Shown: in pieces, positions 11,839 to 44,770 of the stretch
Position numbering within the stretch: position 1 is the first letter of the stretch
Layout: every line of letters starts with the position of its first letter
Source of the DNA: Methanobacteriota archaeon
GTDB taxonomy: Archaea; Thermoplasmatota; Thermoplasmata; Methanomassiliicoccales; UBA472
Direction: 5' to 3'
Assembly (NCBI GenBank): GCA_029560215.1
Contig: JAKPZB010000068.1
Span: forward strand, 1 to 44,770
DNA: 44,770 bases
Notes under the pieces: generated by a model
What the model saw: only the letters and a program-made list of their open reading frames with translations
Told to the model about the DNA's origin: nothing
Database searches by the model: none
Made by a program: the position numbers and the translations under genes

Positions 11839-12459
11839 TTATAACAGGGTCTGCAGGGCGTCGAACACGAACAGAAGCGCGAACACTATCATCAGGACCC
11901 CGGAGCCGGCGATCACCCGCTGATGCCAGGTGCTGCTCCATTTCCCCTTGGTACCGAATATGGTCATTCCGACGAAGCCTTCCCAAAGGAAGTCGCAGGT
12001 GATGTGCACCAGGGCGAAGAAGGGCAGCATCCACCATCCGAAGGTGACGGCGGTCGCCGTGAGCGCGGCGCCGACCGTCGCCCACCAGAGAAGCCAACCG
12101 GGGTTGAAGGCGGTGGTCGTCACACCAGCCCAGAAGGGGCTCTGCTGCCTGGTGTCGCAGCTGGTGACGACCTCCTTGTGCGTCCGTATGATGTCGTAAC
12201 CCATGTACATCAGTATCACCCCTCCCAGCAGTCCGATGGCGCCCAGCACCATGTCGTTCCTCAGGAAGACGCTCAGCCCCAGGAATATGGCGGCTATGGT
12301 CGGGACCTCGACCAGGGCGTGGCCCAGGGCTATCTTCCAGCCGGACCAGCGGTCATGGAAGCCGCAGGCGATGGTCACGGCGAAGACGGGGCCGGGCATC
12401 AGCACCCCGGAAAGGGATATCACGGCCACGGAGCCCAGGAAGAGAAGCGCGGAGTCCAT
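11839..12459 (-). CDS. LysE/RhtB-family amino-acid exporter
   Basis: 206 aa with about 6 TM helices. The N-terminal pattern LSGVLMPGPVFAVTI is typical of LysE-type translocators. Confidence 0.8.
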   Translation of the reverse strand: MDSALLFLGSVAVISLSGVLMPGPVFAVTIACGFHDRWSGWKIALGHALVEVPTIAAIFLGLSVFLRNDMVLGAIGLLGGVILMYMGYDIIRTHKEVVTSCDTRQQSPFWAGVTTTAFNPGWLLWWATVGAALTATAVTFGWWMLPFFALVHITCDFLWEGFVGMTIFGTKGKWSSTWHQRVIAGSGVLMIVFALLFVFDALQTLL

Positions 12460-12468
12460 GTGCTCAGC

Positions 12469-13104
12469 TCACAGGTACCAGTCGACGGTCAGGTTGATGT
12501 AATCGTCGGGGGCCATGTCCCGCAGCGTGCCGCTCTCCACCTCGATGATGGATACGCTGTGGATGCGGGAGTTCATGATCTCGTCCATGCTCACCGGGGG
12601 GCTCTTGTAGTAGAGGTCGCAATAATGCTTGACCAGCCAGGCCTCCTTCTCGTCCCGGTCCCGCGGCGGGCGGGTGAAGAAGGGCATCACCGGCATCACG
12701 TAGTGCGGCGGAGCGGCCAGGGAGAACTTGTGGCAGTGATTGCTGTACCGGGCGATCTTGGAAGCGATCCTCGCCCGGATGTAATCCATGGGGTCCAGGG
12801 CGTGGGCCGGCGGGACGTAGCCGGTCTCCACCTCCACGATCATGACCCCGTCGCCCTTTCTAGCGTAGACGTCGCAGCTCAGCCCGGCGTCGATCATGTG
12901 CTCCAGATCGACCTCGTAGCCGTCCTGCACCAGGTACTTGGCCACGATCATCTCCAGGACCGAGTGGTTGATCTTGAGCAGGTTCTTCTCCTTGAGGTCG
13001 ACGAGCCGCTGCTCCAGTTTGCGGAGGGCCTCCTCGCACGGCGGATCGCAGCCGGCGACCAGCTTGTTCATCAGCGATTCCAGGTCCTGAGCGAACTTGT
13101 CCAA
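12469..13104 (-). CDS. Hypothetical protein; weak resemblance to the restriction-endonuclease-like (PD-(D/E)xK) fold
   Basis: 211-aa GC3-rich ORF lying 9 nt upstream of the LysE gene. The segment E..YLVQDGYEVDLE..CDVYARKGDGVMIVEVETG resembles a nuclease core, but the canonical Lys is absent. Confidence 0.55.
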   Translation of the reverse strand: MDKFAQDLESLMNKLVAGCDPPCEEALRKLEQRLVDLKEKNLLKINHSVLEMIVAKYLVQDGYEVDLEHMIDAGLSCDVYARKGDGVMIVEVETGYVPPAHALDPMDYIRARIASKIARYSNHCHKFSLAAPPHYVMPVMPFFTRPPRDRDEKEAWLVKHYCDLYYKSPPVSMDEIMNSRIHSVSIIEVESGTLRDMAPDDYINLTVDWYL

Positions 13105-13141
13105 AAGGATGCCTCTGTTCCGGTAAACACGAACCTAATCC

Positions 13142-13381
13142 TTACTTTTTATGCTCCTTGCAGACCACCAGGGTGAGGGTGGAGCGAACCCCCGGCAGGT
13201 CCCGGATGGCGATGATGGCCGCGCTCATCTCGTCCTCCGAAGGGGCCTGCACCTTGACCAGTATGTCGTACACCCCGTACACCATGTAGCATTCCTTGAC
13301 GGAAGGCATCTGGCAGAAGGCCTCCATCACCCGCCCCTCGGCGCCGATGTCGGTGGTGATCGCCACGATGGCGCTGTTCAT
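13142..13381 (-). CDS. Stand-alone Lrp/AsnC ligand-binding (RAM) domain protein
   Basis: 79 aa. The VKECYMVYGVYDILVKVQAPSEDEM...IRDLPGVRST pattern matches the AsnC C-terminal domain. There is no HTH. Confidence 0.75.
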   Translation of the reverse strand: MNSAIVAITTDIGAEGRVMEAFCQMPSVKECYMVYGVYDILVKVQAPSEDEMSAAIIAIRDLPGVRSTLTLVVCKEHKK

Positions 13382-13457
13382 GATTACGCTATTGGGCTAG
13401 CCTGAAAATAAGGTTACCGCCGTCTGATGAAGAAGGTCGACGGCAATGACACAGCTC

Positions 13458-13616
13458 TCACTCCTCCGCGGAGGGGGAGAACACGTCGGTCACGGTCCCG
13501 GTCTCGCAGGATACGCTGAAGCCGTATCCCTCGGAGGTTATCTCGTGAGCTACGCGAAGGGAGTAGGGCACTCCCACGTAGTTGTTCTTCGCCTCTTCCA
13601 AAGCCATCTGATCCAT
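13458..13616 (-). CDS. Unannotated small ORF (52 aa), hypothetical
   Basis: ATG preceded by AAAAGAGGTATTAG (SD GAGGT at good spacing). Codons are GC3-rich. Translation: MDQMALEEAKNNYVGVPYSLRVAHEITSEGYGFSVSCETGTVTDVFSPSAEE. It falls below the ORF-track length cutoff. Confidence 0.4.
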   Translation of the reverse strand: MDQMALEEAKNNYVGVPYSLRVAHEITSEGYGFSVSCETGTVTDVFSPSAEE

Positions 13617-13785
13617 CTAATACCTCTTTTTCGGGAATTGGTGATTATTGCGGAACAGCACATAACCGTGATGTTCGGCAATCTGCAAGGTTAACAGGAC
13701 TATGTCTAATTTTGGACAATAATCAAGGGAGCAAACGTTTAATTCGTGTCAGGGAGTAACCGCACACGTCATTGGACCACTTATC

Positions 13786-13853
13786 GGATCGATGAAGAGA
13801 AGAGGGTCAGCTGATCTTCGCGGAAATGATGAACCCTATGAGTGCAGAGATCC
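13786..13853 (+). ncRNA. Candidate C/D-box sRNA (2'-O-methylation guide)
   Basis: Terminal stem GGATC/GATCC. C box ATGAAGA (13792-98), a 12-nt guide, D' box CTGA (13811-14), an 11-nt spacer, perfect C' box ATGATGA (13826-32), a 12-nt guide, D box CAGA (13845-48). The two deviations from consensus fall on the positions that pair with each other (the U.U position) in a k-turn. Confidence 0.5.
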
Positions 13854-13864
13854 CGGTCCAGGAC

Positions 13865-14380
13865 TCACTCCAGGCGGCGGACCGAGATGTGCAGGCCGGG
13901 GGAGCGGTCGCAATCACCGTAGCATTTGCCGGCGGTGATGCGCACCACCTGCGAATCGTCGGGGATGAGGATGTTGGTAATGCCGTCGAGAACCGCCCGC
14001 ACCAGCTTGTCCAGGTCCGGGCGCTTGGTGTTCTGCTTCCAGCGCTTGGGCGTGCTCTTCGGCCGGGTGAAGACGAACTCCATGGTCACCTCGTAACCGA
14101 GGCGGCGGTCCTCCGAGAAGTAGCTCTGCGGACGTAGTTCGTTCTCATGCTGCGCTTCGGTCGCAATGCGGTTGCGCCAGGCTTCCGTGTTGGCGTTGGT
14201 GTGTGTCGTCACCACCCGCTCCAGCTTCTTGATGTAGAACGCTTTAGTCGAGCCCTGCGGCACCGGTTCGCCGGCGACGAAGAACTCGATGACGTCCGGA
14301 TCGAACTCCTCGTAGGTCATGAAGTCCACCGGTCCCGCCTCGTGCTCCTCAGCGTCCGCTGCTTGATCATTCACGTGCAT
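13865..14380 (-). CDS. rusA: RusA-family Holliday-junction resolvase (phage/bacterial type)
   Basis: The KRPDLDKLVRAVLDGITNILIPDDSQVVRI block matches the RusA catalytic signature (E. coli RusA: [29 protein letters not shown]). It carries an acidic N-terminal extension; MTYEEF at 14320 is an alternative start. Confidence 0.8.
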   Translation of the reverse strand: MHVNDQAADAEEHEAGPVDFMTYEEFDPDVIEFFVAGEPVPQGSTKAFYIKKLERVVTTHTNANTEAWRNRIATEAQHENELRPQSYFSEDRRLGYEVTMEFVFTRPKSTPKRWKQNTKRPDLDKLVRAVLDGITNILIPDDSQVVRITAGKCYGDCDRSPGLHISVRRLE

Positions 14381-26508: not shown

Positions 26509-27345
26509 ATGGCCGACACCTGGTCCAATCTTCTGAAACGCCAGACCGGCCTGGACCTCGCCTATCCGGTCAGGCAGGCCACCTGGTATACCTCCCGGCT
26601 GAGGCAGGAGCCCCTGGGATGCATATGCGTCGAGGAGGGAGGGAAGCTGATCGCCACCGGTTTCGCCCTGAGCTGCGGGAGCGTCGGCTGGATAGGGCCG
26701 ATGGAGGTCAGCCCGACCTATCAGGGAAAGGGTTACGGCTCCCAACTACTGCTTTCGCTTGAGGCCTACCTCTCGTCCCGGGGGTGCAAGGCGGTGGGCC
26801 TGGAGACCATGAAGGACGTCTCCCGCAACCTGGACTTCTACACCCGGGCCGGATACGCCCCGGAACAGGACATGCTGTTCCTGGAGAAGGACTGGCTGGA
26901 GGGGCAGGACGCCGGACTGCCCTCGGAAGGCAAGGCCGATCTCGCGGAGATCAAAAGGCTGGCCGCCACCATAAATCCGGGTTTCGACCCGTCCTCCGAG
27001 TTCAGCATATACCAGGAGATGGGCATCGGCCGGACCCTGCGGGGGGAGGGAGCCGCCGCCCTTCTTTTGACCGACCCCATCCCCGGTTCCGGGAAAGCCT
27101 ATCTACGAACGGTGCTGACCGAAGGCTACCACCGACTGGACGAGGCGATCGCCCTGGTGCAGGAGGCGGAGCGCGAGGCGCTATGGTCCGGGGCGAGAGC
27201 GATATTCACCATCGTCCCGGCCCAGAGCGAGCTCCTGACCTACCTCATCCGGGGCGGGTACAAGCCCAAGGGGGCGGACGTGCGGATGATGAAGGGCAAG
27301 TTCGCCCGCGGCCACGAATGCTCCATCTTCTCCTGGTCGGGCTAG
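26509..27345 (+). CDS. GNAT-family acetyltransferase with a C-terminal extension domain
   Basis: The acetyl-CoA motif is VSPTYQGKGYGSQLL. The first ATG is at 26509, but the in-frame upstream peptide LLVIRQLRADDVPSAQAL looks like the missing GNAT beta1/alpha1, so the true 5' end is uncertain. Confidence 0.7.
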   Translation: MADTWSNLLKRQTGLDLAYPVRQATWYTSRLRQEPLGCICVEEGGKLIATGFALSCGSVGWIGPMEVSPTYQGKGYGSQLLLSLEAYLSSRGCKAVGLETMKDVSRNLDFYTRAGYAPEQDMLFLEKDWLEGQDAGLPSEGKADLAEIKRLAATINPGFDPSSEFSIYQEMGIGRTLRGEGAAALLLTDPIPGSGKAYLRTVLTEGYHRLDEAIALVQEAEREALWSGARAIFTIVPAQSELLTYLIRGGYKPKGADVRMMKGKFARGHECSIFSWSG

Positions 27346-28190
27346 GGGCTCTTGGGCATTATGACGGCCAGTATCAAATAGGCCAGTATAAGCACGCCCG
27401 AGGTGAGCAGCGCGCCGACCACCCAGAGCACCCGGACCAGGAACGGGTCGGTGTCCAGGAACTCGGCCATTCCGCCGCATACGCCGAAGATTATCTTGTC
27501 CCGGTTCGAACGCGTCATGCGCTTGCCCGGAGCGTAGGGGGCCTGAGGCGGAGCCTGCGTCGGAGGGGCCGGCGGAACGCTGACCGGCGGAGCGGGTGCT
27601 CCGAAGCGCCCCGCCTTCATGATCACCCCGATGTAACCCAGCAGGACGATCAGCAGGAAGATGATATAGAGCACCGAGGCCACCATCTCCCCCATGGCCG
27701 AGATGAACTCATCAGGCTTGGCCGCTCCCCAGATATCGAAGGCGCGGGAGACCACCCAAAGCACGAAGGTCGCGATGATGGCCGTCACCAACGGCGAGAC
27801 CAAGGCGGTTTCTCTTGGATACTTTCTGGTGTAATAGCCAAAGAAGAACCCCAGAAGGAAGACCAGGAAGAACAGCAGCAGGGTGTCGCCCAGGAACCCG
27901 GAGAAGTCGCCGGCGAAGGCCGATTCTCCGGACAGCGCGTCGAATATCTCCATCACCAGCAGGACGAATATCAGGCCCAGGAAGGTCTTGAGCACCGGCC
28001 CCGCTCCCCTGAACGTCCTATCGAAGGGGGTTTGGTTCCAGACCGCCGGGGCTCTCTTGGCCGGTTCGTTCGAAGGCTGCGGCGGGACCACGATCTGTCC
28101 ACCGCATTTCTGACAGAAGGCGGCCTGATCCTCGTTGACCGCTCCGCACTTAGGGCAATAGACCATTTGACATCCCGCCGATGAGAACAT
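27342..28190 (-). CDS. Membrane protein with an N-terminal zinc ribbon, TM helices, a Pro-rich linker and a C-terminal PspC domain
   Basis: CPKCG..x..CQKCG. PspC signature: DKIIFGVCGGMAEFLDTDPFLVRVLWVV plus a terminal TM helix. Confidence 0.7.
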   Translation of the reverse strand: MFSSAGCQMVYCPKCGAVNEDQAAFCQKCGGQIVVPPQPSNEPAKRAPAVWNQTPFDRTFRGAGPVLKTFLGLIFVLLVMEIFDALSGESAFAGDFSGFLGDTLLLFFLVFLLGFFFGYYTRKYPRETALVSPLVTAIIATFVLWVVSRAFDIWGAAKPDEFISAMGEMVASVLYIIFLLIVLLGYIGVIMKAGRFGAPAPPVSVPPAPPTQAPPQAPYAPGKRMTRSNRDKIIFGVCGGMAEFLDTDPFLVRVLWVVGALLTSGVLILAYLILAVIMPKSP

Positions 28191-28207
28191 GTCCCAAGCT
28201 CATAATC

Positions 28208-28224
28208 ATTGCCCTTGGGGCAAT
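28208..28224. promoter_or_regulatory. Palindrome ATTGCCC-TTG-GGGCAAT in a divergent intergenic region
   Basis: Perfect 7-bp arms, located between the 28190 (minus) and 28259 (plus) start codons. Confidence 0.3.
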
Positions 28225-28258
28225 ATCTCAATAATGCCTCAGGTGCATCATCGCCACC

Positions 28259-28633
28259 ATGGCCGATGGCGAAGAGGAAAGGGTGCGTCGAGTTCTGGAG
28301 AGAGCCAAGGAGGAGTACGGCTTCGTGCCGCTGGTCTCGGAGGTCATGTCCGACCGTCCAGACCTCTTCCTGCCCTATTCGGAGATATCCGCCGGGCTGT
28401 TCTTCCGCCCCCGGCACATGGACCGCAAGACGGCGGAGCTGGCGGCGATCACCGCCGGGGCGGCCTTGGGAAGCGAGAACTGCCTCATGGTCCACATTCC
28501 CCAGGCCTTCAAGCTCGGCGTCAGCGAGGAGGCGGTGCTGGAGGCGATGATACTCGGGGCGTTCATGAGCATGAACCGCAGCAACTCCATAGCCTTCCGG
28601 TGTCTGAAGGCGGCGAAAGAGGGAATGAGATGA
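28259..28633 (+). CDS. Carboxymuconolactone decarboxylase (AhpD-like) family protein
   Basis: 124 aa. The LDRKTAELAAITAGAALGSENCLMVH pattern is typical of the CMD family. Confidence 0.7.
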   Translation: MADGEEERVRRVLERAKEEYGFVPLVSEVMSDRPDLFLPYSEISAGLFFRPRHMDRKTAELAAITAGAALGSENCLMVHIPQAFKLGVSEEAVLEAMILGAFMSMNRSNSIAFRCLKAAKEGMR

Positions 28634-29073
28634 AGTGTTCCGTGGGCAGCGCCGGAAGGGTGTTGGTCATCCGTCTGGAGGACGGCGACGTGCTGCACGA
28701 GTGCGTGGAGAGGGCGGCCAAGGAGAACGGCATCGCCAGAGGGGCGGTGCTGGCGTTAGGCGGCGCGGACCAGGGAAGCCGCATGGTCGTCGGTCCCCGG
28801 GACGGCCGCTCGGAGAGGATCGAGCCGATGCTGGCTCAGCTTGCCGGGGAATCCGAACTGGCCGCCGTGGGCACGATATTTCCCGATGAGAACGGCGAAC
28901 CGTCATTGCACATGCACGCCTCGGCCGGAAGGGACGGGAGGAGCGTCACCGGATGCGTTCGCGCGGGCGTCAAGGTCTGGCTGATGCAGGAGGTGGTGGT
29001 CATCGAGATCCTGGGCACCGCTTCCCGGAGGGTCAAGGACCCCCGCACCGGATTCCATCTGCTGGAACCCTGA
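28630..29073 (+). CDS. PPC/DUF296 domain protein
   Basis: The ATG overlaps the previous stop (ATGA). The pattern ..AAVGTIFPDENGEPSLHMHASAGRDGRSVTG..EVVVIEI is typical of PPC domains. The upstream part of track ORF 28189-29073 is an artefact. Confidence 0.7.
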   Translation: MKCSVGSAGRVLVIRLEDGDVLHECVERAAKENGIARGAVLALGGADQGSRMVVGPRDGRSERIEPMLAQLAGESELAAVGTIFPDENGEPSLHMHASAGRDGRSVTGCVRAGVKVWLMQEVVVIEILGTASRRVKDPRTGFHLLEP

Positions 29074-39010: not shown

Positions 39011-39339
39011 TTATAAATTATTTGAAAAATATAATATTGCGCCCGGATGAACAATGTTAGTTCATTATAACGTCCAGATCTAAATGATTTATTAATATAA
39101 ATATAATATACTCATATAATATTGATTAAAGATATAATTAATTTAGCCTATATCTAAACTGCATAAAATAATTCAGGACAACTCAATTTCAAATACTTTC
39201 GAGCATTAGTCGAAATCTAATATACATTAATAATTTAAAATGTAATCTAAATCAAATAAAATAATATAGTATTAACATAAACTATACAATTTATCGTCAG
39301 ACAATCGTCGGCTATTATATATGCAATAATACAATTATC

Positions 39340-39354
39340 ATATGATTCAGCGGT
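39340..39354 (+). repeat. Left copy of the 15-nt direct repeat ATATGATTCAGCGGT
   Basis: It ends 4 nt before the first recombinase ATG and is embedded in the imperfect inverted repeat CATATGA-N8-TCAATATG. It matches 41056-41070 at 14 of 15 positions. Confidence 0.6.
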
Positions 39355-39358
39355 CAAT

Positions 39359-40216
39359 ATGTCAGACAATGAGCGACTGAGGGCGGCTATCTATGCCAGG
39401 GTCTCCACCGAGGATCAGGCTCGGGAAGGATACAGCATAGCGGCCCAGCTCAAGCGTCTGCGCTCCTATTGCCTGGCCAGGGGGTGGACCGTCGCCAACG
39501 AATACGTCGACGACGGCTACAGCGGAAGGAGCCCGGAGCGTCCAGAGTACAAGAGGATGATGCACGAAAAAGATCTCTGGGACGTTGTCGTTGTCCTCAA
39601 GATGGACCGTATCCACCGCAACAGCCGCAACTTCGCCATGATGATGGACTTCCTGCGTTCCTGGAACAAGGAGTTCAACTCCACCCAGGAGAACTTCGAT
39701 ACCACCACCGCCATCGGTCGGTTCGTCATGGACACGGTCCAGAGGATCGCCCAGCTGGAGAGCGAGCAGATCGGGGAGAGGGTGAAGGTGGCCATGACCC
39801 AGAAGGCGCTGGAGAAGAAAGGACACCTGGGATGCCCGGAACCTTATGGATACAGATATCAGGATGGCCAGTTGTTGATCGATGAGAACGAGGCGATGGT
39901 GGTGGATATGATATTCCGCATGGCTGGGAATCTTTGCTCCCTGAGCCAGATCGTCGAAGTGCTTAACGATTCACGCGTCCCCACCAAGAACGGAGGGGAA
40001 TGGCAGCGGCCTACCGTGCACGGGATACTGGCCAACCGCATCTATCTCGGCCAGCTGGTATGGGACGGCATCGTTCAAGAGGCCCCTCACCTGAAGATGA
40101 TCGATCCCGAACTTTTCCAGGAGGTCCAAGAGATCTCAGCTCAGAGGATCAAGTCCAGGCGCAGCCCGAAGCGCATACCCGCCAAGTCACTCTTCCGGAG
40201 CGAGGCGCATGCCTAG
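39359..40216 (+). CDS. Serine recombinase, short two-domain form (resolvase catalytic domain plus recombinase domain, no zinc ribbon or coiled coil)
   Basis: IYARVSTEDQ (nucleophile Ser), KMDRIHRNS, E-helix RIAQLESEQIGER, recombinase-domain PYGYRY..W..PTVHGILANRIYLG. 285 aa. Confidence 0.88.
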   Translation: MSDNERLRAAIYARVSTEDQAREGYSIAAQLKRLRSYCLARGWTVANEYVDDGYSGRSPERPEYKRMMHEKDLWDVVVVLKMDRIHRNSRNFAMMMDFLRSWNKEFNSTQENFDTTTAIGRFVMDTVQRIAQLESEQIGERVKVAMTQKALEKKGHLGCPEPYGYRYQDGQLLIDENEAMVVDMIFRMAGNLCSLSQIVEVLNDSRVPTKNGGEWQRPTVHGILANRIYLGQLVWDGIVQEAPHLKMIDPELFQEVQEISAQRIKSRRSPKRIPAKSLFRSEAHA

Positions 40217-41030
40217 GGTGGCCATATATACCCGGGTTTCTACCGAGGACCAGGCCAGGGAAGGTTTTTCTCTGGCCGCTCAGAAACAGCGATTAGAAGC
40301 ATTTTGCGACGCACAGGGCTGGGACATCGCGGATTACTACATCGATGACGGTCATTCCGGCCGGAACATCCGCCGGCCAGCCTATCGCCGGATGATGGAA
40401 GAACGCGATAGATGGGACATCATCCTGGTCATGAAGATGGACCGTATCCACCGCAACTCCAAGAACTTCATGATAATGATGGAGAACCTGGAGAAGTGGG
40501 GCAAGAAGTTCAGCTCAATGAACGAGTCGCTGGACACATCCAACGCCGTCGGCCGCTTCGTGGTGGACATCATCCAGAGGATCGCCCAGCTGGAAAGCGA
40601 ACAGATCGGCGAGCGCACGTACATGGGCATGAGACAGAAGGCCGAATCTGGCCAGGGGCTATTGGGATTCCGTGTTCCTTATGGATATCGGCTCCGGGAA
40701 GGGATGCTTCACGTTGACGACACAGAAGCGGAAGTGGTCCGCTCCATATACAATAGATATCTTTCCGGACAGACCATGGAGATGATCGCCTGGGGGCTGA
40801 ACCGGGACGGGACAACCACCCGGACCGAGGGCGACTGGACGGTATGGTCGATAAGCCGCATCTTGCACAACCCGGTGTATGCCGGATACTTGCGCTGGGA
40901 GGACCTGGTCAATCCCGCGGAGCACGCGTCCATAATAGACGTCGCCACCTTCAACAAGGTTCAGGTCATGATAGCTGGCAAGATAAAGAACAGAACGCAT
41001 GCCGCGGCTAAACTTCTCCCCGAGAAATGA
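40209..41030 (+). CDS. Serine recombinase, paralog of the upstream gene with the same short two-domain architecture
   Basis: IYTRVSTEDQ, KMDRIHRNS, RIAQLESEQIGER, PYGYRL..W..SISRILHNPVYAG. 273 aa. It overlaps the upstream gene by 8 nt. Confidence 0.88.
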   Translation: MPRVAIYTRVSTEDQAREGFSLAAQKQRLEAFCDAQGWDIADYYIDDGHSGRNIRRPAYRRMMEERDRWDIILVMKMDRIHRNSKNFMIMMENLEKWGKKFSSMNESLDTSNAVGRFVVDIIQRIAQLESEQIGERTYMGMRQKAESGQGLLGFRVPYGYRLREGMLHVDDTEAEVVRSIYNRYLSGQTMEMIAWGLNRDGTTTRTEGDWTVWSISRILHNPVYAGYLRWEDLVNPAEHASIIDVATFNKVQVMIAGKIKNRTHAAAKLLPEK

Positions 41031-41055
41031 AAAATCATCCAGATGATAAGAAAGG

Positions 41056-41070
41056 ATATGATTCAGAGGT
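41056..41070 (+). repeat. Right copy of the 15-nt direct repeat ATATGATTCAGAGGT
   Basis: It begins 25 nt after the second recombinase stop and matches 39340-39354 at 14 of 15 positions. Confidence 0.6.
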
Positions 41071-41250
41071 ACTCTCAAAACATATTATTGGGAGGATGTG
41101 AAATAGTTTCAGGATATTTATATTTATTCTAAAATTAGGCCAGTTAAATGGCGGTCAAACCTTTTGATATTTAACGGCCTATAAAAAAATCCATTAACGC
41201 TGGTTAATCGGTAAAGTTTATATTATCTACCCCAACCGATACTTTAAACA

Positions 41251-41267
41251 GGATTGTTGAACAATCC
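41251..41267. promoter_or_regulatory. Perfect palindrome GGATTGTT-G-AACAATCC (candidate operator) just downstream of a TATA-like ACTTTAAA
   Basis: 8-bp perfect arms. TATA-like box at 41241-41248. The palindrome occupies the TATA-to-TSS interval, about 35 nt upstream of the small-ORF ATG. Confidence 0.4.
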
Positions 41268-41301
41268 AAATAGGGACAGTCCGAAGGGAGAGGGGATCAC
41301 A

Positions 41302-41411: not shown

Positions 41412-41996
41412 ATGGCAGAAGAAAGCAACGTACACACAAAAATGGCAATGGCCGAGGTTTTGGGGCTTTACATGATTGCCCTAATCGGTATCTTGGTCGG
41501 TTGCTATGGCCTGGGTGTCTTTGATGGCCTTGGGGTCATCATTGGGATCAGCACTTACCTTGGTTTGGGTCTGCTCCTATGCACTTATGTGGCCTACAGA
41601 AATGAGAACCTGCTGCTGACTGGAATTTTCGGCGTCCTGGCCGTATTCCTGCTCGGCTTCCCGGCAATGGTCAACGGCGCGATGGGGACCCTCGGCGACT
41701 TCGATTCCGCAATGATCTATATGGTCTTTATCGGAGTCCTGCTGCTGGTCATGGGTGTGGTTTCCCTGGCTCAGCCGGTCAAAATGCTGCCCATACTGCT
41801 GATCGTAGCGGCAATCGCGTTCATCCTGCTGGGCCTGTGGTTCCAGAACGACCTGCCGAACGCCACCGAGGACTACCGCATGGTGACTGGAGTCCTCTGG
41901 CTGCTGGTCGGCCTGATCGCTACCTACATGGGTGCCGCAATCAGCCTACTGGTGATGAAGGGCAAGCCGGTCCTTCCGTTGCTCATCAAGGCATAA
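41412..41996 (+). CDS. Six-TM membrane protein; weak resemblance to GPR1/FUN34/YaaH (SatP) acetate/succinate channels
   Basis: 194 aa with 6 hydrophobic helices. Length and the C-terminal ..YMGAAISLLVMKGKPVLPL recall SatP (..YLAMGEVLNEQFGRTVLPIG), but the NPAPLGL motif is absent. Confidence 0.6.
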   Translation: MAEESNVHTKMAMAEVLGLYMIALIGILVGCYGLGVFDGLGVIIGISTYLGLGLLLCTYVAYRNENLLLTGIFGVLAVFLLGFPAMVNGAMGTLGDFDSAMIYMVFIGVLLLVMGVVSLAQPVKMLPILLIVAAIAFILLGLWFQNDLPNATEDYRMVTGVLWLLVGLIATYMGAAISLLVMKGKPVLPLLIKA

Positions 41997-42951: not shown

Positions 42952-43188
42952 CGACGTAAAACCTGGGCTGTAGACCCGATTTCTACGCCTTTCAAGTTGA
43001 TGTTAGGGAGTCCGTCGCATACAAATTTGAACTGGTCTGTACAACAAACTATCAAAATTCATCAAATTAATATGACTAATAATATCATTATTTCTATTTA
43101 TGTTTATATTAGCATTAATGTTATTGAAATTAAAAATATAATTAATAATAGCAAAACTATATACAATAATAATTCTATGGTGTATGTG

Positions 43189-43335
43189 ATGTCCGAAGGC
43201 AAAACAACTATACAATTGACAGAGGCGACACGGGACCGGCTCTACAAATTGAAATTCCGCAGGACCTACGACCAATTTCTGAACGAACTCTGCGATCTTT
43301 ATGAGACCGAGGAGAAAAAGAACCTGGAAAATTGA
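43189..43335 (+). CDS. Small ribbon-helix-helix-like protein (48 aa)
   Basis: MSEGKTTIQLTEATRDRLYKLKFRRTYDQFLNELCDLYE fits a beta-strand/helix/helix CopG/Arc-like pattern. Only this 3' part of track ORF 42997-43335 has normal GC composition. ATG at 43177 is an alternative start. Confidence 0.5.
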   Translation: MSEGKTTIQLTEATRDRLYKLKFRRTYDQFLNELCDLYETEEKKNLEN

Positions 43336-43508
43336 TGGTAGATCCAAACATAACTGTTAATGATAATTAAAATAATGTAGTAAAGCAACATATTAAAAAT
43401 ATGTATGTAAAACATTGACAAAGCGATTTTCATAAAAATTTTCAGCTCTGGTCGGGCGAGAAGGATTTTTAAGTCAGCGGCTCCCATAACAAATCCAGTG
43501 ATCTTCAC

Positions 43509-44088: not shown

Positions 44089-44541
44089 TTACGGAACCAG
44101 GACCTTGTTCACCACGTGGATGTATCCGTTCTTGCACTTGATGTTGCCGCGGATGATGGTGGCCCCAGCGACCTTCAGAAGCCCCTTGGCGTCAACGGCC
44201 ACTTCCTTCTGGTCGGCAGTGGCGACGGTCGGCTTGGCCGCCAACTGATCGTAGGACAGCGCGCCCTCAACGACGTGGTGGGTGAGCACGGCCTTCAACT
44301 TGGCCTTGTCCTTCAACAACGCTTCCATAGTTCCATCTGGCAGGTCTATGAACGCGGAGTTGTTAGGGACGAACACCGTGAACGGCCCCTTCTTTCCCAG
44401 CAGATCAACCAATCCAGCTTCCTTCAGTGCCGCGACGAGGGTCTTGTAGTCTCCGTCCGCTGCCAAAGTCTCTGCGATGGTCTTCAGGTTAGGGTCAGCG
44501 ACCCAAGATCCCTTCTTTTTGAATATATCGAAGAATCCCAT
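44089..44541 (-). CDS. Fasciclin (FAS1) domain protein without an obvious signal peptide
   Basis: TVFVPNNSAF, LTHHVV and NGYIHVVNKVLVP FAS1 motifs. Start at MGFFDIF (44541). Confidence 0.85.
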   Translation of the reverse strand: MGFFDIFKKKGSWVADPNLKTIAETLAADGDYKTLVAALKEAGLVDLLGKKGPFTVFVPNNSAFIDLPDGTMEALLKDKAKLKAVLTHHVVEGALSYDQLAAKPTVATADQKEVAVDAKGLLKVAGATIIRGNIKCKNGYIHVVNKVLVP

Positions 44542-44770
44542 GAAATCCCTGGGAGCGAATTTGACTTGTATCAATATAAAACCATACTATTAACGCTATA
44601 AAGTTCCCTATTTCCATTTTCTAATATATAAAAAAAATTTCCAGATGTTCGGAGCGTTATCAATAAAACACGAAAGATATTTATAATGAGGAAAAGCGCG
44701 AGCTTTGAAATCCGTTGAAAATAATCTAGTTTAACTAATTGCTTAATAATAATATATGATATAGTTACAA

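Follow-up and report, generated by a model that had tools for sequence, protein, structure and literature searches.

The 44,770-nt stretch of archaeal DNA analyzed here (the window; contig JAKPZB010000068.1, Methanomassiliicoccales) carries near its right end two adjacent genes that encode unusually short serine recombinases. Gene A (39359-40216, forward strand) encodes a 285-residue protein and gene B (40209-41030, forward strand) a paralogue of 273 residues. The initial annotation, made from the sequence alone, had described two same-strand open reading frames (ORFs) of these lengths overlapping by 8 nt and the coordinates proved accurate, as did its description of intact serine-recombinase motifs followed by a recombinase-type second domain. 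Pfam searches gave strong matches to the Resolvase catalytic domain (PF00239; E = 1.7e-33 for A and 8e-36 for B) and, following the E-helix, to the Recombinase domain (PF07508; E = 1.6e-16 for A and 2e-18 for B). Neither protein matched Zn_ribbon_recom (PF13408) or HTH_7 even at E ≤ 1. Hence, the profile searches confirmed the suspected truncation and showed that A and B are not small resolvases with a C-terminal helix-turn-helix (HTH). The zinc-ribbon and coiled-coil module missing from both proteins is that which gives phage integrases their attP × attB selectivity and directionality. The annotation had correctly noted this absence, although it placed the ends of the proteins about 45 residues beyond the second domain, whereas only 23 (A) and 17 (B) residues follow the Pfam recombinase-domain envelope.

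The AlphaFold2 model of A has the catalytic fold, an E-helix (residues 118-151), a confidently predicted second domain (residues 165-267) and a disordered tail (residues 268-285). The best Foldseek matches were the SPbeta, Bxb1, phiC31 and A118 integrases and the recombinase domain superimposed on that of A118 integrase with a root mean square deviation of 2.6 Å over about 105 residues. By sequence the closest solved catalytic domain was that of TP901-1 integrase (E = 1.1e-34). Alignments to profiles of full-length enzymes were only partial. A and B covered positions 84-374 of the 651-position phrog_95 integrase profile and positions 2-238 of the 542-position CcrB model, and the best partial NCBIfam matches (CcrB, CcrA and CcrC) were restricted to the first 240-260 residues. 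Two resolvase models, Mpi and YneB, also matched partially and far below their cut-offs.

These data place both proteins in the serine-recombinase superfamily as derivatives of the large serine recombinase (LSR) lineage. They resemble the LSRs (TP901-1, Bxb1, phiC31, A118/LI and SPbeta SprA) in the catalytic and PF07508 domains, and the full-length proteins nearest to them are phage integrases of ~470-490 residues. However, LSRs are proteins of ~450-700 residues having both a zinc ribbon and a coiled coil, and they reside on phages or integrative and conjugative elements together with an attP × attB site pair and a recombination directionality factor. In contrast, A and B are two chromosomal, vertically inherited paralogues of 285 and 273 residues that lack both elements, and neither an att pair nor a directionality factor is evident at their locus. 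The archaeal serine recombinases studied so far, the IS607-family TnpA proteins, are likewise similar in the catalytic domain (E = 2e-9 to 2e-10, a partial match of 37-40 bits versus a cut-off of 110; structures 6dgc and 3ilx were also among the Foldseek matches). TnpA proteins, however, carry an N-terminal MerR-like HTH, lack the recombinase domain and travel with tnpB. None of these features is found in A and B and no tnpB-like gene adjoins the pair.

The start of B lies within the last codons of A, and the 8-nt overlap ATGCCTAG (40209-40216, forward strand) suggests translational coupling. Of 60 scored pairs, 44 have kept the overlap. A and B share 49% identity over 271 residues, in line with the earlier by-eye estimate of about one-half. 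The YxRVS, KMDRIHRN and RIAQLESEQ motifs were invariant in 14 family members, and the serine nucleophile, DR..R and E-helix motifs were retained in 55 orthologues of A and 54 of B. The active-site serine together with the acidic and basic catalytic residues was invariant or nearly so in both paralogues (about 55 orthologues each). The A gene precedes the B gene in both Methanomassiliicoccaceae and Methanomethylophilaceae, indicating that the duplication predates the order. The blocks of 24 and 21 nt reported earlier as shared between the genes are indeed exactly identical in the window. Such identity is frequent across genomes (complete over KMDRIHRN in 19 of 65 and over QRIAQLESEQ in 11 of 65), and thus the blocks reflect invariant residues plus codon bias. 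Gene conversion was considered as their source and found to be unnecessary, the same identity being common across genomes.

Several other properties of the gene boundaries were observed. The stop codon of A was TAG in 38 of 60 pairs (40214-40216 in the window) owing to the overlap with the third codon of B, an AGR codon for the conserved catalytic arginine. Methanomassiliicoccales decode TAG as pyrrolysine in some genes, and read-through of A in the window would add ~43 residues in a frame other than that of B. In many Methanomassiliicoccales (for example, loci L031, L055 and L024) a conserved GGGATGGGA(A/T)C motif, which probably serves in ribosome binding, is found 8-12 nt ahead of the A and B starts; in the clade of the window GATTCAGCGGTCA occupies this position. 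In two high-GC Thermoplasmata loci (L063, 2098-3639 and L065, 826-2370) the second recombinase ORF has a 240-residue N-terminal extension when read from the first possible start; this extension has no Pfam match and an internal start would give a protein of ~275 residues.

The exact A protein was found on nine contigs, five of which were compared by BLAST and found to be 99.3-99.5% identical to, and collinear with, the window. A search of 5.8 billion proteins returned 3,289 relatives, the best 120 of which were all of 219-341 residues with the same two domains, those with names being from Methanomassiliicoccales. When one genome per GTDB species was searched, 471 stretches encoded a relative and the best 80 were all from Thermoplasmata. 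In a representative library of 1.8 billion proteins the top ~40 matches were nearly all of 250-340 residues and LSRs of 460-490 residues became common only below ~270 bits. By size the family comprises >3,000 clusters at 90% identity (E ≤ 1e-40). Apart from those on two fragments of 4-5 kb, relatives on viral contigs, phages and plasmids were full-length integrases of ~480 residues with no more than 40% identity, and none in phage and plasmid records reached 60% identity.

Throughout the loci of Methanomassiliicoccaceae and Methanomethylophilaceae, B orthologues come after A orthologues (the latter 53-91% identical across the order), and the surrounding gene order is also conserved. Upstream are genes encoding Nre, a radical SAM protein, the thermosome and c1 (an unknown protein of 440-460 residues), followed by a variable gene, whereas downstream of B lie proline dehydrogenase and then a membrane protein. 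The variable gene between c1 and A encodes an RPA-like single-OB-fold protein in 40 loci. In the clade of the window flavodoxin, aldehyde dehydrogenase, ABC transporter and DUF2124 genes precede A instead. The third-codon-position GC content (GC3) of A (0.78) and B (0.73) is like that of neighboring genes. The remainder of the window is core chromosome encoding aminoacyl-tRNA synthetases, adenylosuccinate synthetase, NadA, FBPase, TIM and a Toprim-domain protein. The synteny with Nre, radical SAM, thermosome and proline dehydrogenase genes together with the native GC3 speaks for long vertical residence. Sequence comparison thus identifies the pair as fixed, vertically inherited chromosomal genes that form a distinct short branch of the LSR lineage; the locus is neither a mobile element nor the stump of one. 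A genomic island was rejected on the native GC3, the conserved synteny and the presence of AT-rich intergenic DNA elsewhere in the window, and a defense system was rejected because PADLOC gave no match at the locus. Note that the RPA-like gene of the 40 Methanomassiliicoccaceae loci (L022-L078; for example, L035, 5369-5803) is divergent from the pair and shares with it the intergenic region that contains the boxes described below, an arrangement not found in the clade of the window. A radical SAM gene of the PA0069/Rv2578c type and NreA lie a few genes upstream in the loci having the RPA-like gene.

A cluster of short boxes precedes gene A. The composite box GTCAGAC-AATC-GTCGGC (39296-39312, forward strand; half-boxes b1 at 39296-39302 and b2 at 39307-39312) is a candidate binding, operator or res-like site. 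It is directly followed by the TATA-like element TATTATATAT (39313-39322, forward strand), around which the block GCTATTATATATG is conserved in close relatives. From its fit to the archaeal TATA consensus this element would be the promoter of the pair. A third box, GTCAGACAAT (39361-39370, forward strand; GTCAGAC at 39361-39367), overlaps the A start codon, encodes residues 2-4 (S-D-N) and is located at a distance of 65 bp, or some six helical turns, from b1. This third box is conserved at +1/+2 in the clade of the window, whereas other clades have equivalent boxes 21-32 nt before the start codon. Across the order the boxes are spaced around the TATA-like element by multiples of ~11 bp (11, 22, 32, 54 and 65), and upstream alignments showed conservation only of the last ~70 nt before A.

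The boxes are closely associated with the recombinase genes. The composite consensus, GTCNGAC-N3-5-GTCNG(A/C), occurred 39 times in 844 kb scanned on both strands and 37 of these occurrences, one for each of 37 loci, were ≤170 nt upstream of the first recombinase gene. Simple boxes were less restricted, 100 of 167 in 805 kb falling within ±250 nt of the A start. The boxes follow the recombinase genes whether the upstream neighbor encodes the OB-fold protein, DUF2124 or the thermosome, and they are absent from every other intergenic region of the 44.8-kb window. No second composite box was found in the window (39 kb upstream and 4 kb downstream) or in the ±6 kb around 78 loci. The two halves of the site are unequal in some genomes that have the pair, GTCNGAC being strong and GTCNG(A/C) weaker, whereas in the single-copy clade described below the site is more symmetric; this difference would fit binding by a heterodimer and a homodimer, respectively. 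Two other interpretations of the boxes were discarded. Cassette or integron-like capture failed because the extra boxes of L026 and L043, 1 kb upstream, fall within the coding sequence of aldehyde dehydrogenase. A replication origin was set aside because the published Methanomassiliicoccales origin recognition box consensus, GTTCCAGTGGAAATGG (PMC4153887), is unrelated to the boxes, although no formal scan was made.

Other, uncultured Thermoplasmatota have a single gene of the same family encoding a protein of ~272 residues, usually located between S8e-SRP19 and TrkA. These single-copy homologues are accompanied by 1-3 copies of a related 19-bp palindrome, TGCTAGATAATATCTAGCA, beside the gene. 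The motif therefore changes with the protein clade, as is expected for a cognate site. The single-copy genes are followed by 480-870 bp of non-coding DNA with up to three TGCTAGATAATATCTAGCA copies (L081, 5692-6086; L089, 5831-6301; L086, 5903-5956 and 7725; and L169-L171), and Rfam gave no match in these long non-coding regions. The single-copy loci also have a nearly invariant 28-bp palindrome, GGTTACCTTCGG-ACTA-CCGAAGGTAACC (L169, 5830; L170, 5829; L083, 844; L086, 6826; L081, 5935; L089, 6116; and L171, 6172). In four of these seven loci it begins a distance of ~10 nt from the recombinase stop codon, and in the other three it is located farther downstream. Co-variation seems to occur in the outer stem, and the central 4 nt are found in both orientations; an RNA hairpin and a DNA site of recombination type are both conceivable. 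A similar sequence, CTTACGGACTACCGTTAG, is located upstream of the recombinase gene in L071 and L077.

The initial annotation had looked for recombination sites elsewhere, in the sequences that bracket the pair. The 15-nt direct repeat that it reported is present, the left (39340-39354) and right (41056-41070) forward-strand copies being identical at 14 of 15 positions. A flank-to-flank match of this quality arose in 2 of 300 composition-preserving shuffles and is mildly unusual in the window. However, the right copy was absent from all 10 relatives examined (74-91% protein identity) and carries a substitution even in L001, a contig with 99.3% identity to the window. We judge it to be a chance or lineage-private match that is not part of the system. 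Seven of the 10 relatives have the left copy at -19/-18 with zero to three changes; its persistence is explained by its place in the conserved 5' leader (GATTCAGCGGTCA), and it is not a recombination repeat. The 8-mer GCGGTCAA also occurs in both flanks as reported (39350-39357 and 41151-41158), but about one shared 8-mer is the estimated chance expectation between flanks of such size and the right copy is not conserved in relatives. The inverted repeat CATATGA..TCAATATG, said to be shaped like a recombinase site, was also not conserved. Lacking conservation in relatives, the 15-mer, the 8-mer and the inverted repeats were all rejected as recombination sites, and the proposal that the recombinases act on these bracketing sequences is not supported. 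The flanks of the pair are AT-rich as described (GC about 0.22-0.36 versus about 0.6 for the window). AT-rich intergenic stretches are also found elsewhere in the window (42971-43497 and 44499-44769) and flank the pair at all orthologous loci. The low GC is thus ordinary intergenic DNA here rather than an island marker, and neither it nor the 15-mers play a part.

Given these data we put at roughly 0.5 the probability that A and B are a vertically inherited, probably heteromeric pair of miniature LSRs that binds to and autoregulates from the promoter site, and that this site is also where the pair recombines DNA. A two-subunit recombinase is plausible from comparative sequence data since the paralogues, their order, the overlap and the catalytic residues have been retained across the order. 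The overlap would set a fixed A:B ratio and the proteins would act as a hetero-oligomer that binds the GTCNGAC boxes and represses its own promoter, as does resolvase at res, with the box cluster doubling as the recombination site. Resolution-type recombination would then take place between copies of the cluster on sister or multimeric chromosomes. Such a resolution step is our preferred guess for the DNA reaction, although we give the step by itself only a low probability, because there is one cluster per locus (within ±6 kb, and within 39 kb upstream in the window) and the zinc-ribbon and coiled-coil module is missing. The one-cluster premise pertains to the scanned loci and would need to hold genome-wide for this argument to stand. 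Less probable still is the further step of a housekeeping system, in which a hetero-oligomer of minimal subunits recombines sister copies of a res-like promoter site, for example in multimer resolution.

Several observations weigh against this interpretation. Tight coupling of the genes is neither obligatory nor universal, because ~2 kb separates A from B in one Methanomassiliicoccales genome (L047, 6840-8923) and gaps of 60-100 nt are found in several others. The composite core of 16-18 bp is shorter than the 26-50 bp of known serine-recombinase crossover sites. Recombination products were not found. The annotation had proposed a check for structural polymorphism, and none was seen in the five near-identical contigs, all of which are collinear; when metagenomes were scanned for the promoter-side half of the site, seven contigs were returned, all with an intact left box plus the recombinase gene and none with a recombinant junction. 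Thus, there is no evidence of excision, inversion or integration at the locus. Finally, the dimer-resolution idea is weakened because in most archaea XerA/dif already serves this purpose (PMC8371274; PMC2958812). Thermoplasma has an active XerA and XerA is present in other Thermoplasmata (PMC8371274). The best 120 matches to a Thermoplasma XerA query were all of the Thermoplasmatales type. The ~2-kb insert in L047 contains several candidate ORFs on both strands, one of which (reverse strand) encodes a putative membrane protein of 290 residues.

Four other explanations were weighed. That raised by the initial annotation, a minimal element that excises itself, what is left of an integrated one or a local DNA switch, in each case using the bracketing 15-mers and inverted repeats, with AT-rich DNA as the mark of foreign origin, is largely refuted and we regard it as very improbable. 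The 14/15 match between the 15-mers (equalled in 2 of 300 shuffles), the AT-rich flanks and the Ccr proteins as best partial NCBIfam matches could be cited in its support. These points are outweighed by the order-wide synteny with housekeeping neighbors, the native GC3, the failure of the right 15-mer, the 8-mer and the inverted repeats to persist in relatives, the AT-rich DNA at all orthologous loci and in other intergenic regions, the collinear contigs without junctions and the lack of close viral or plasmid relatives. In addition, no tRNA or Rfam RNA was found at the locus borders, hence a tRNA or known RNA at the borders was rejected, and the only match to the site on viral contigs (IMG/VR) was probably due to chance. 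The pair might instead be an invertase or excisionase that acts in trans on true sites elsewhere in the chromosome, the promoter boxes being only an autoregulatory operator. This seems unlikely. Many chromosomal serine invertases and developmental excisionases do act at a distance, the conserved catalytic residues are consistent with such activity and the site search covered the locus and ±6-kb flanks. Against it are the lack of a second composite box in the window or within ±6 kb in 78 loci and the fact that, to our knowledge, no phase-variation or excision system is conserved at the order or class level.

The remaining two explanations concern the boxes. If A and B had been domesticated as DNA-binding regulators or architectural proteins that no longer recombine DNA, the operator-like appearance of boxes phased by ~11 bp over the promoter and start codon would be accounted for, as would the lack of recombination products in the contigs and metagenomes. 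We consider this quite improbable because active-site residues that are invariant or nearly so in both paralogues would not be expected were catalysis dispensable. Alternatively, the GTCNGAC boxes could belong to another transcription factor, in which case the sites and role of the recombinases would not be visible at this locus. Palindromes of 7 bp phased by ~11 bp would also suit small archaeal regulators. However, the boxes track the recombinase genes despite differing upstream neighbors, occur in no other intergenic region of the window and have a cognate variant beside the single-copy homologues of other Thermoplasmatota, hence we think this explanation unlikely.

The pair was compared with several known systems. 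Like the staphylococcal CcrA and CcrB proteins of the staphylococcal cassette chromosome (SCC), A and B are encoded by two adjacent same-strand paralogous genes of LSR type, and both arrangements suggest a two-recombinase machine. However, A and B score only 83-141 bits against the Ccr models, versus cut-offs of 700-900 bits, and thus fall short of equivalog level, aligning with only the first 240-260 residues of models of 442-542 residues. Moreover, the host is an archaeon and the locus lacks an SCC-like element, conserved flanking direct repeats and mobility. The candidate multi-box site over the promoter adjacent to the gene is reminiscent of Tn3/γδ resolvase and its res site (also of Sin and the β recombinase), as are the single site cluster at the locus and, we infer, a site used without an intrinsic directionality module. 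These small resolvases and invertases are proteins of ~180-210 residues with a C-terminal HTH, whereas A and B use the LSR recombinase domain instead and are two paralogous, chromosomal and vertically inherited subunits. The layout of the candidate site (~11-bp phasing and a 16-18 bp core) is also unlike that of the res subsites. Order-wide inheritance, paralogous partners and a single locus recall XerC/XerD-dif and archaeal XerA-dif, but the resemblance is only functional. The Xer proteins are tyrosine recombinases of unrelated fold and chemistry, dif is not beside xer, and a role for A and B in dimer resolution is speculation.

Mobile elements and local switches are the settings in which serine recombinases are known. 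A 2021 review stated that those of archaea "were never fully investigated" (PMC8371274), and we found no description of this short-LSR family in the searchable literature. What is new is an LSR core that lacks the directionality module, has been duplicated into a coupled pair and is domesticated in an archaeal chromosome. The family, with proteins of ~272-285 residues, has kept the LSR recombinase domain, lacks the module and is fixed at constant chromosomal positions in Thermoplasmatota. Within Methanomassiliicoccales it forms an order-wide coupled paralogue pair with a cognate-looking promoter site. If active, the pair would show how an LSR core works without directionality domains, would be a naturally occurring minimal recombinase of two subunits that uses a short site, and would suggest that these archaea, among them methanogens of the human gut, have an unrecognized function in chromosome maintenance or regulation. 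Should the housekeeping role prove correct, the pair would be the first "household" serine recombinase to be vertically inherited and, outside transposons, the first archaeal serine recombinase to which a defined role has been assigned.

Several features elsewhere in the window were also recorded. Two inverted-repeat pairs of the form GTTAA(T)/(A)TTAAC (GGCCAGTTAAAT..ATTTAACGGCC and ATTAAC-GCTG-GTTAAT) at 41140-41215 lie just upstream of the TATA-like sequence TTTATATTA and a membrane-protein gene (41412-41996). They are conserved in relatives L010-L015 and look like a separate operator of the downstream gene that is unrelated to the GTCNGAC boxes. At 11923-14380 a RusA-like endonuclease gene (13865-14380, reverse strand) lies beside three ORFs of low GC3 (0.53-0.57 versus 0.8-0.9 for their neighbors), the largest of which has no Pfam match; this segment may be the remnant of an integrated element. 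Two genes at 26784-29073, with GC3 values of 0.54 and 0.64, encode a 466-residue protein without a Pfam match and a PCC-domain protein and may have been acquired horizontally. Lastly, the AT-rich stretch at 42971-43497 contains a small low-GC3 ORF (42997-43335) that matches DUF7557 and is located upstream of a ferritin-like gene.

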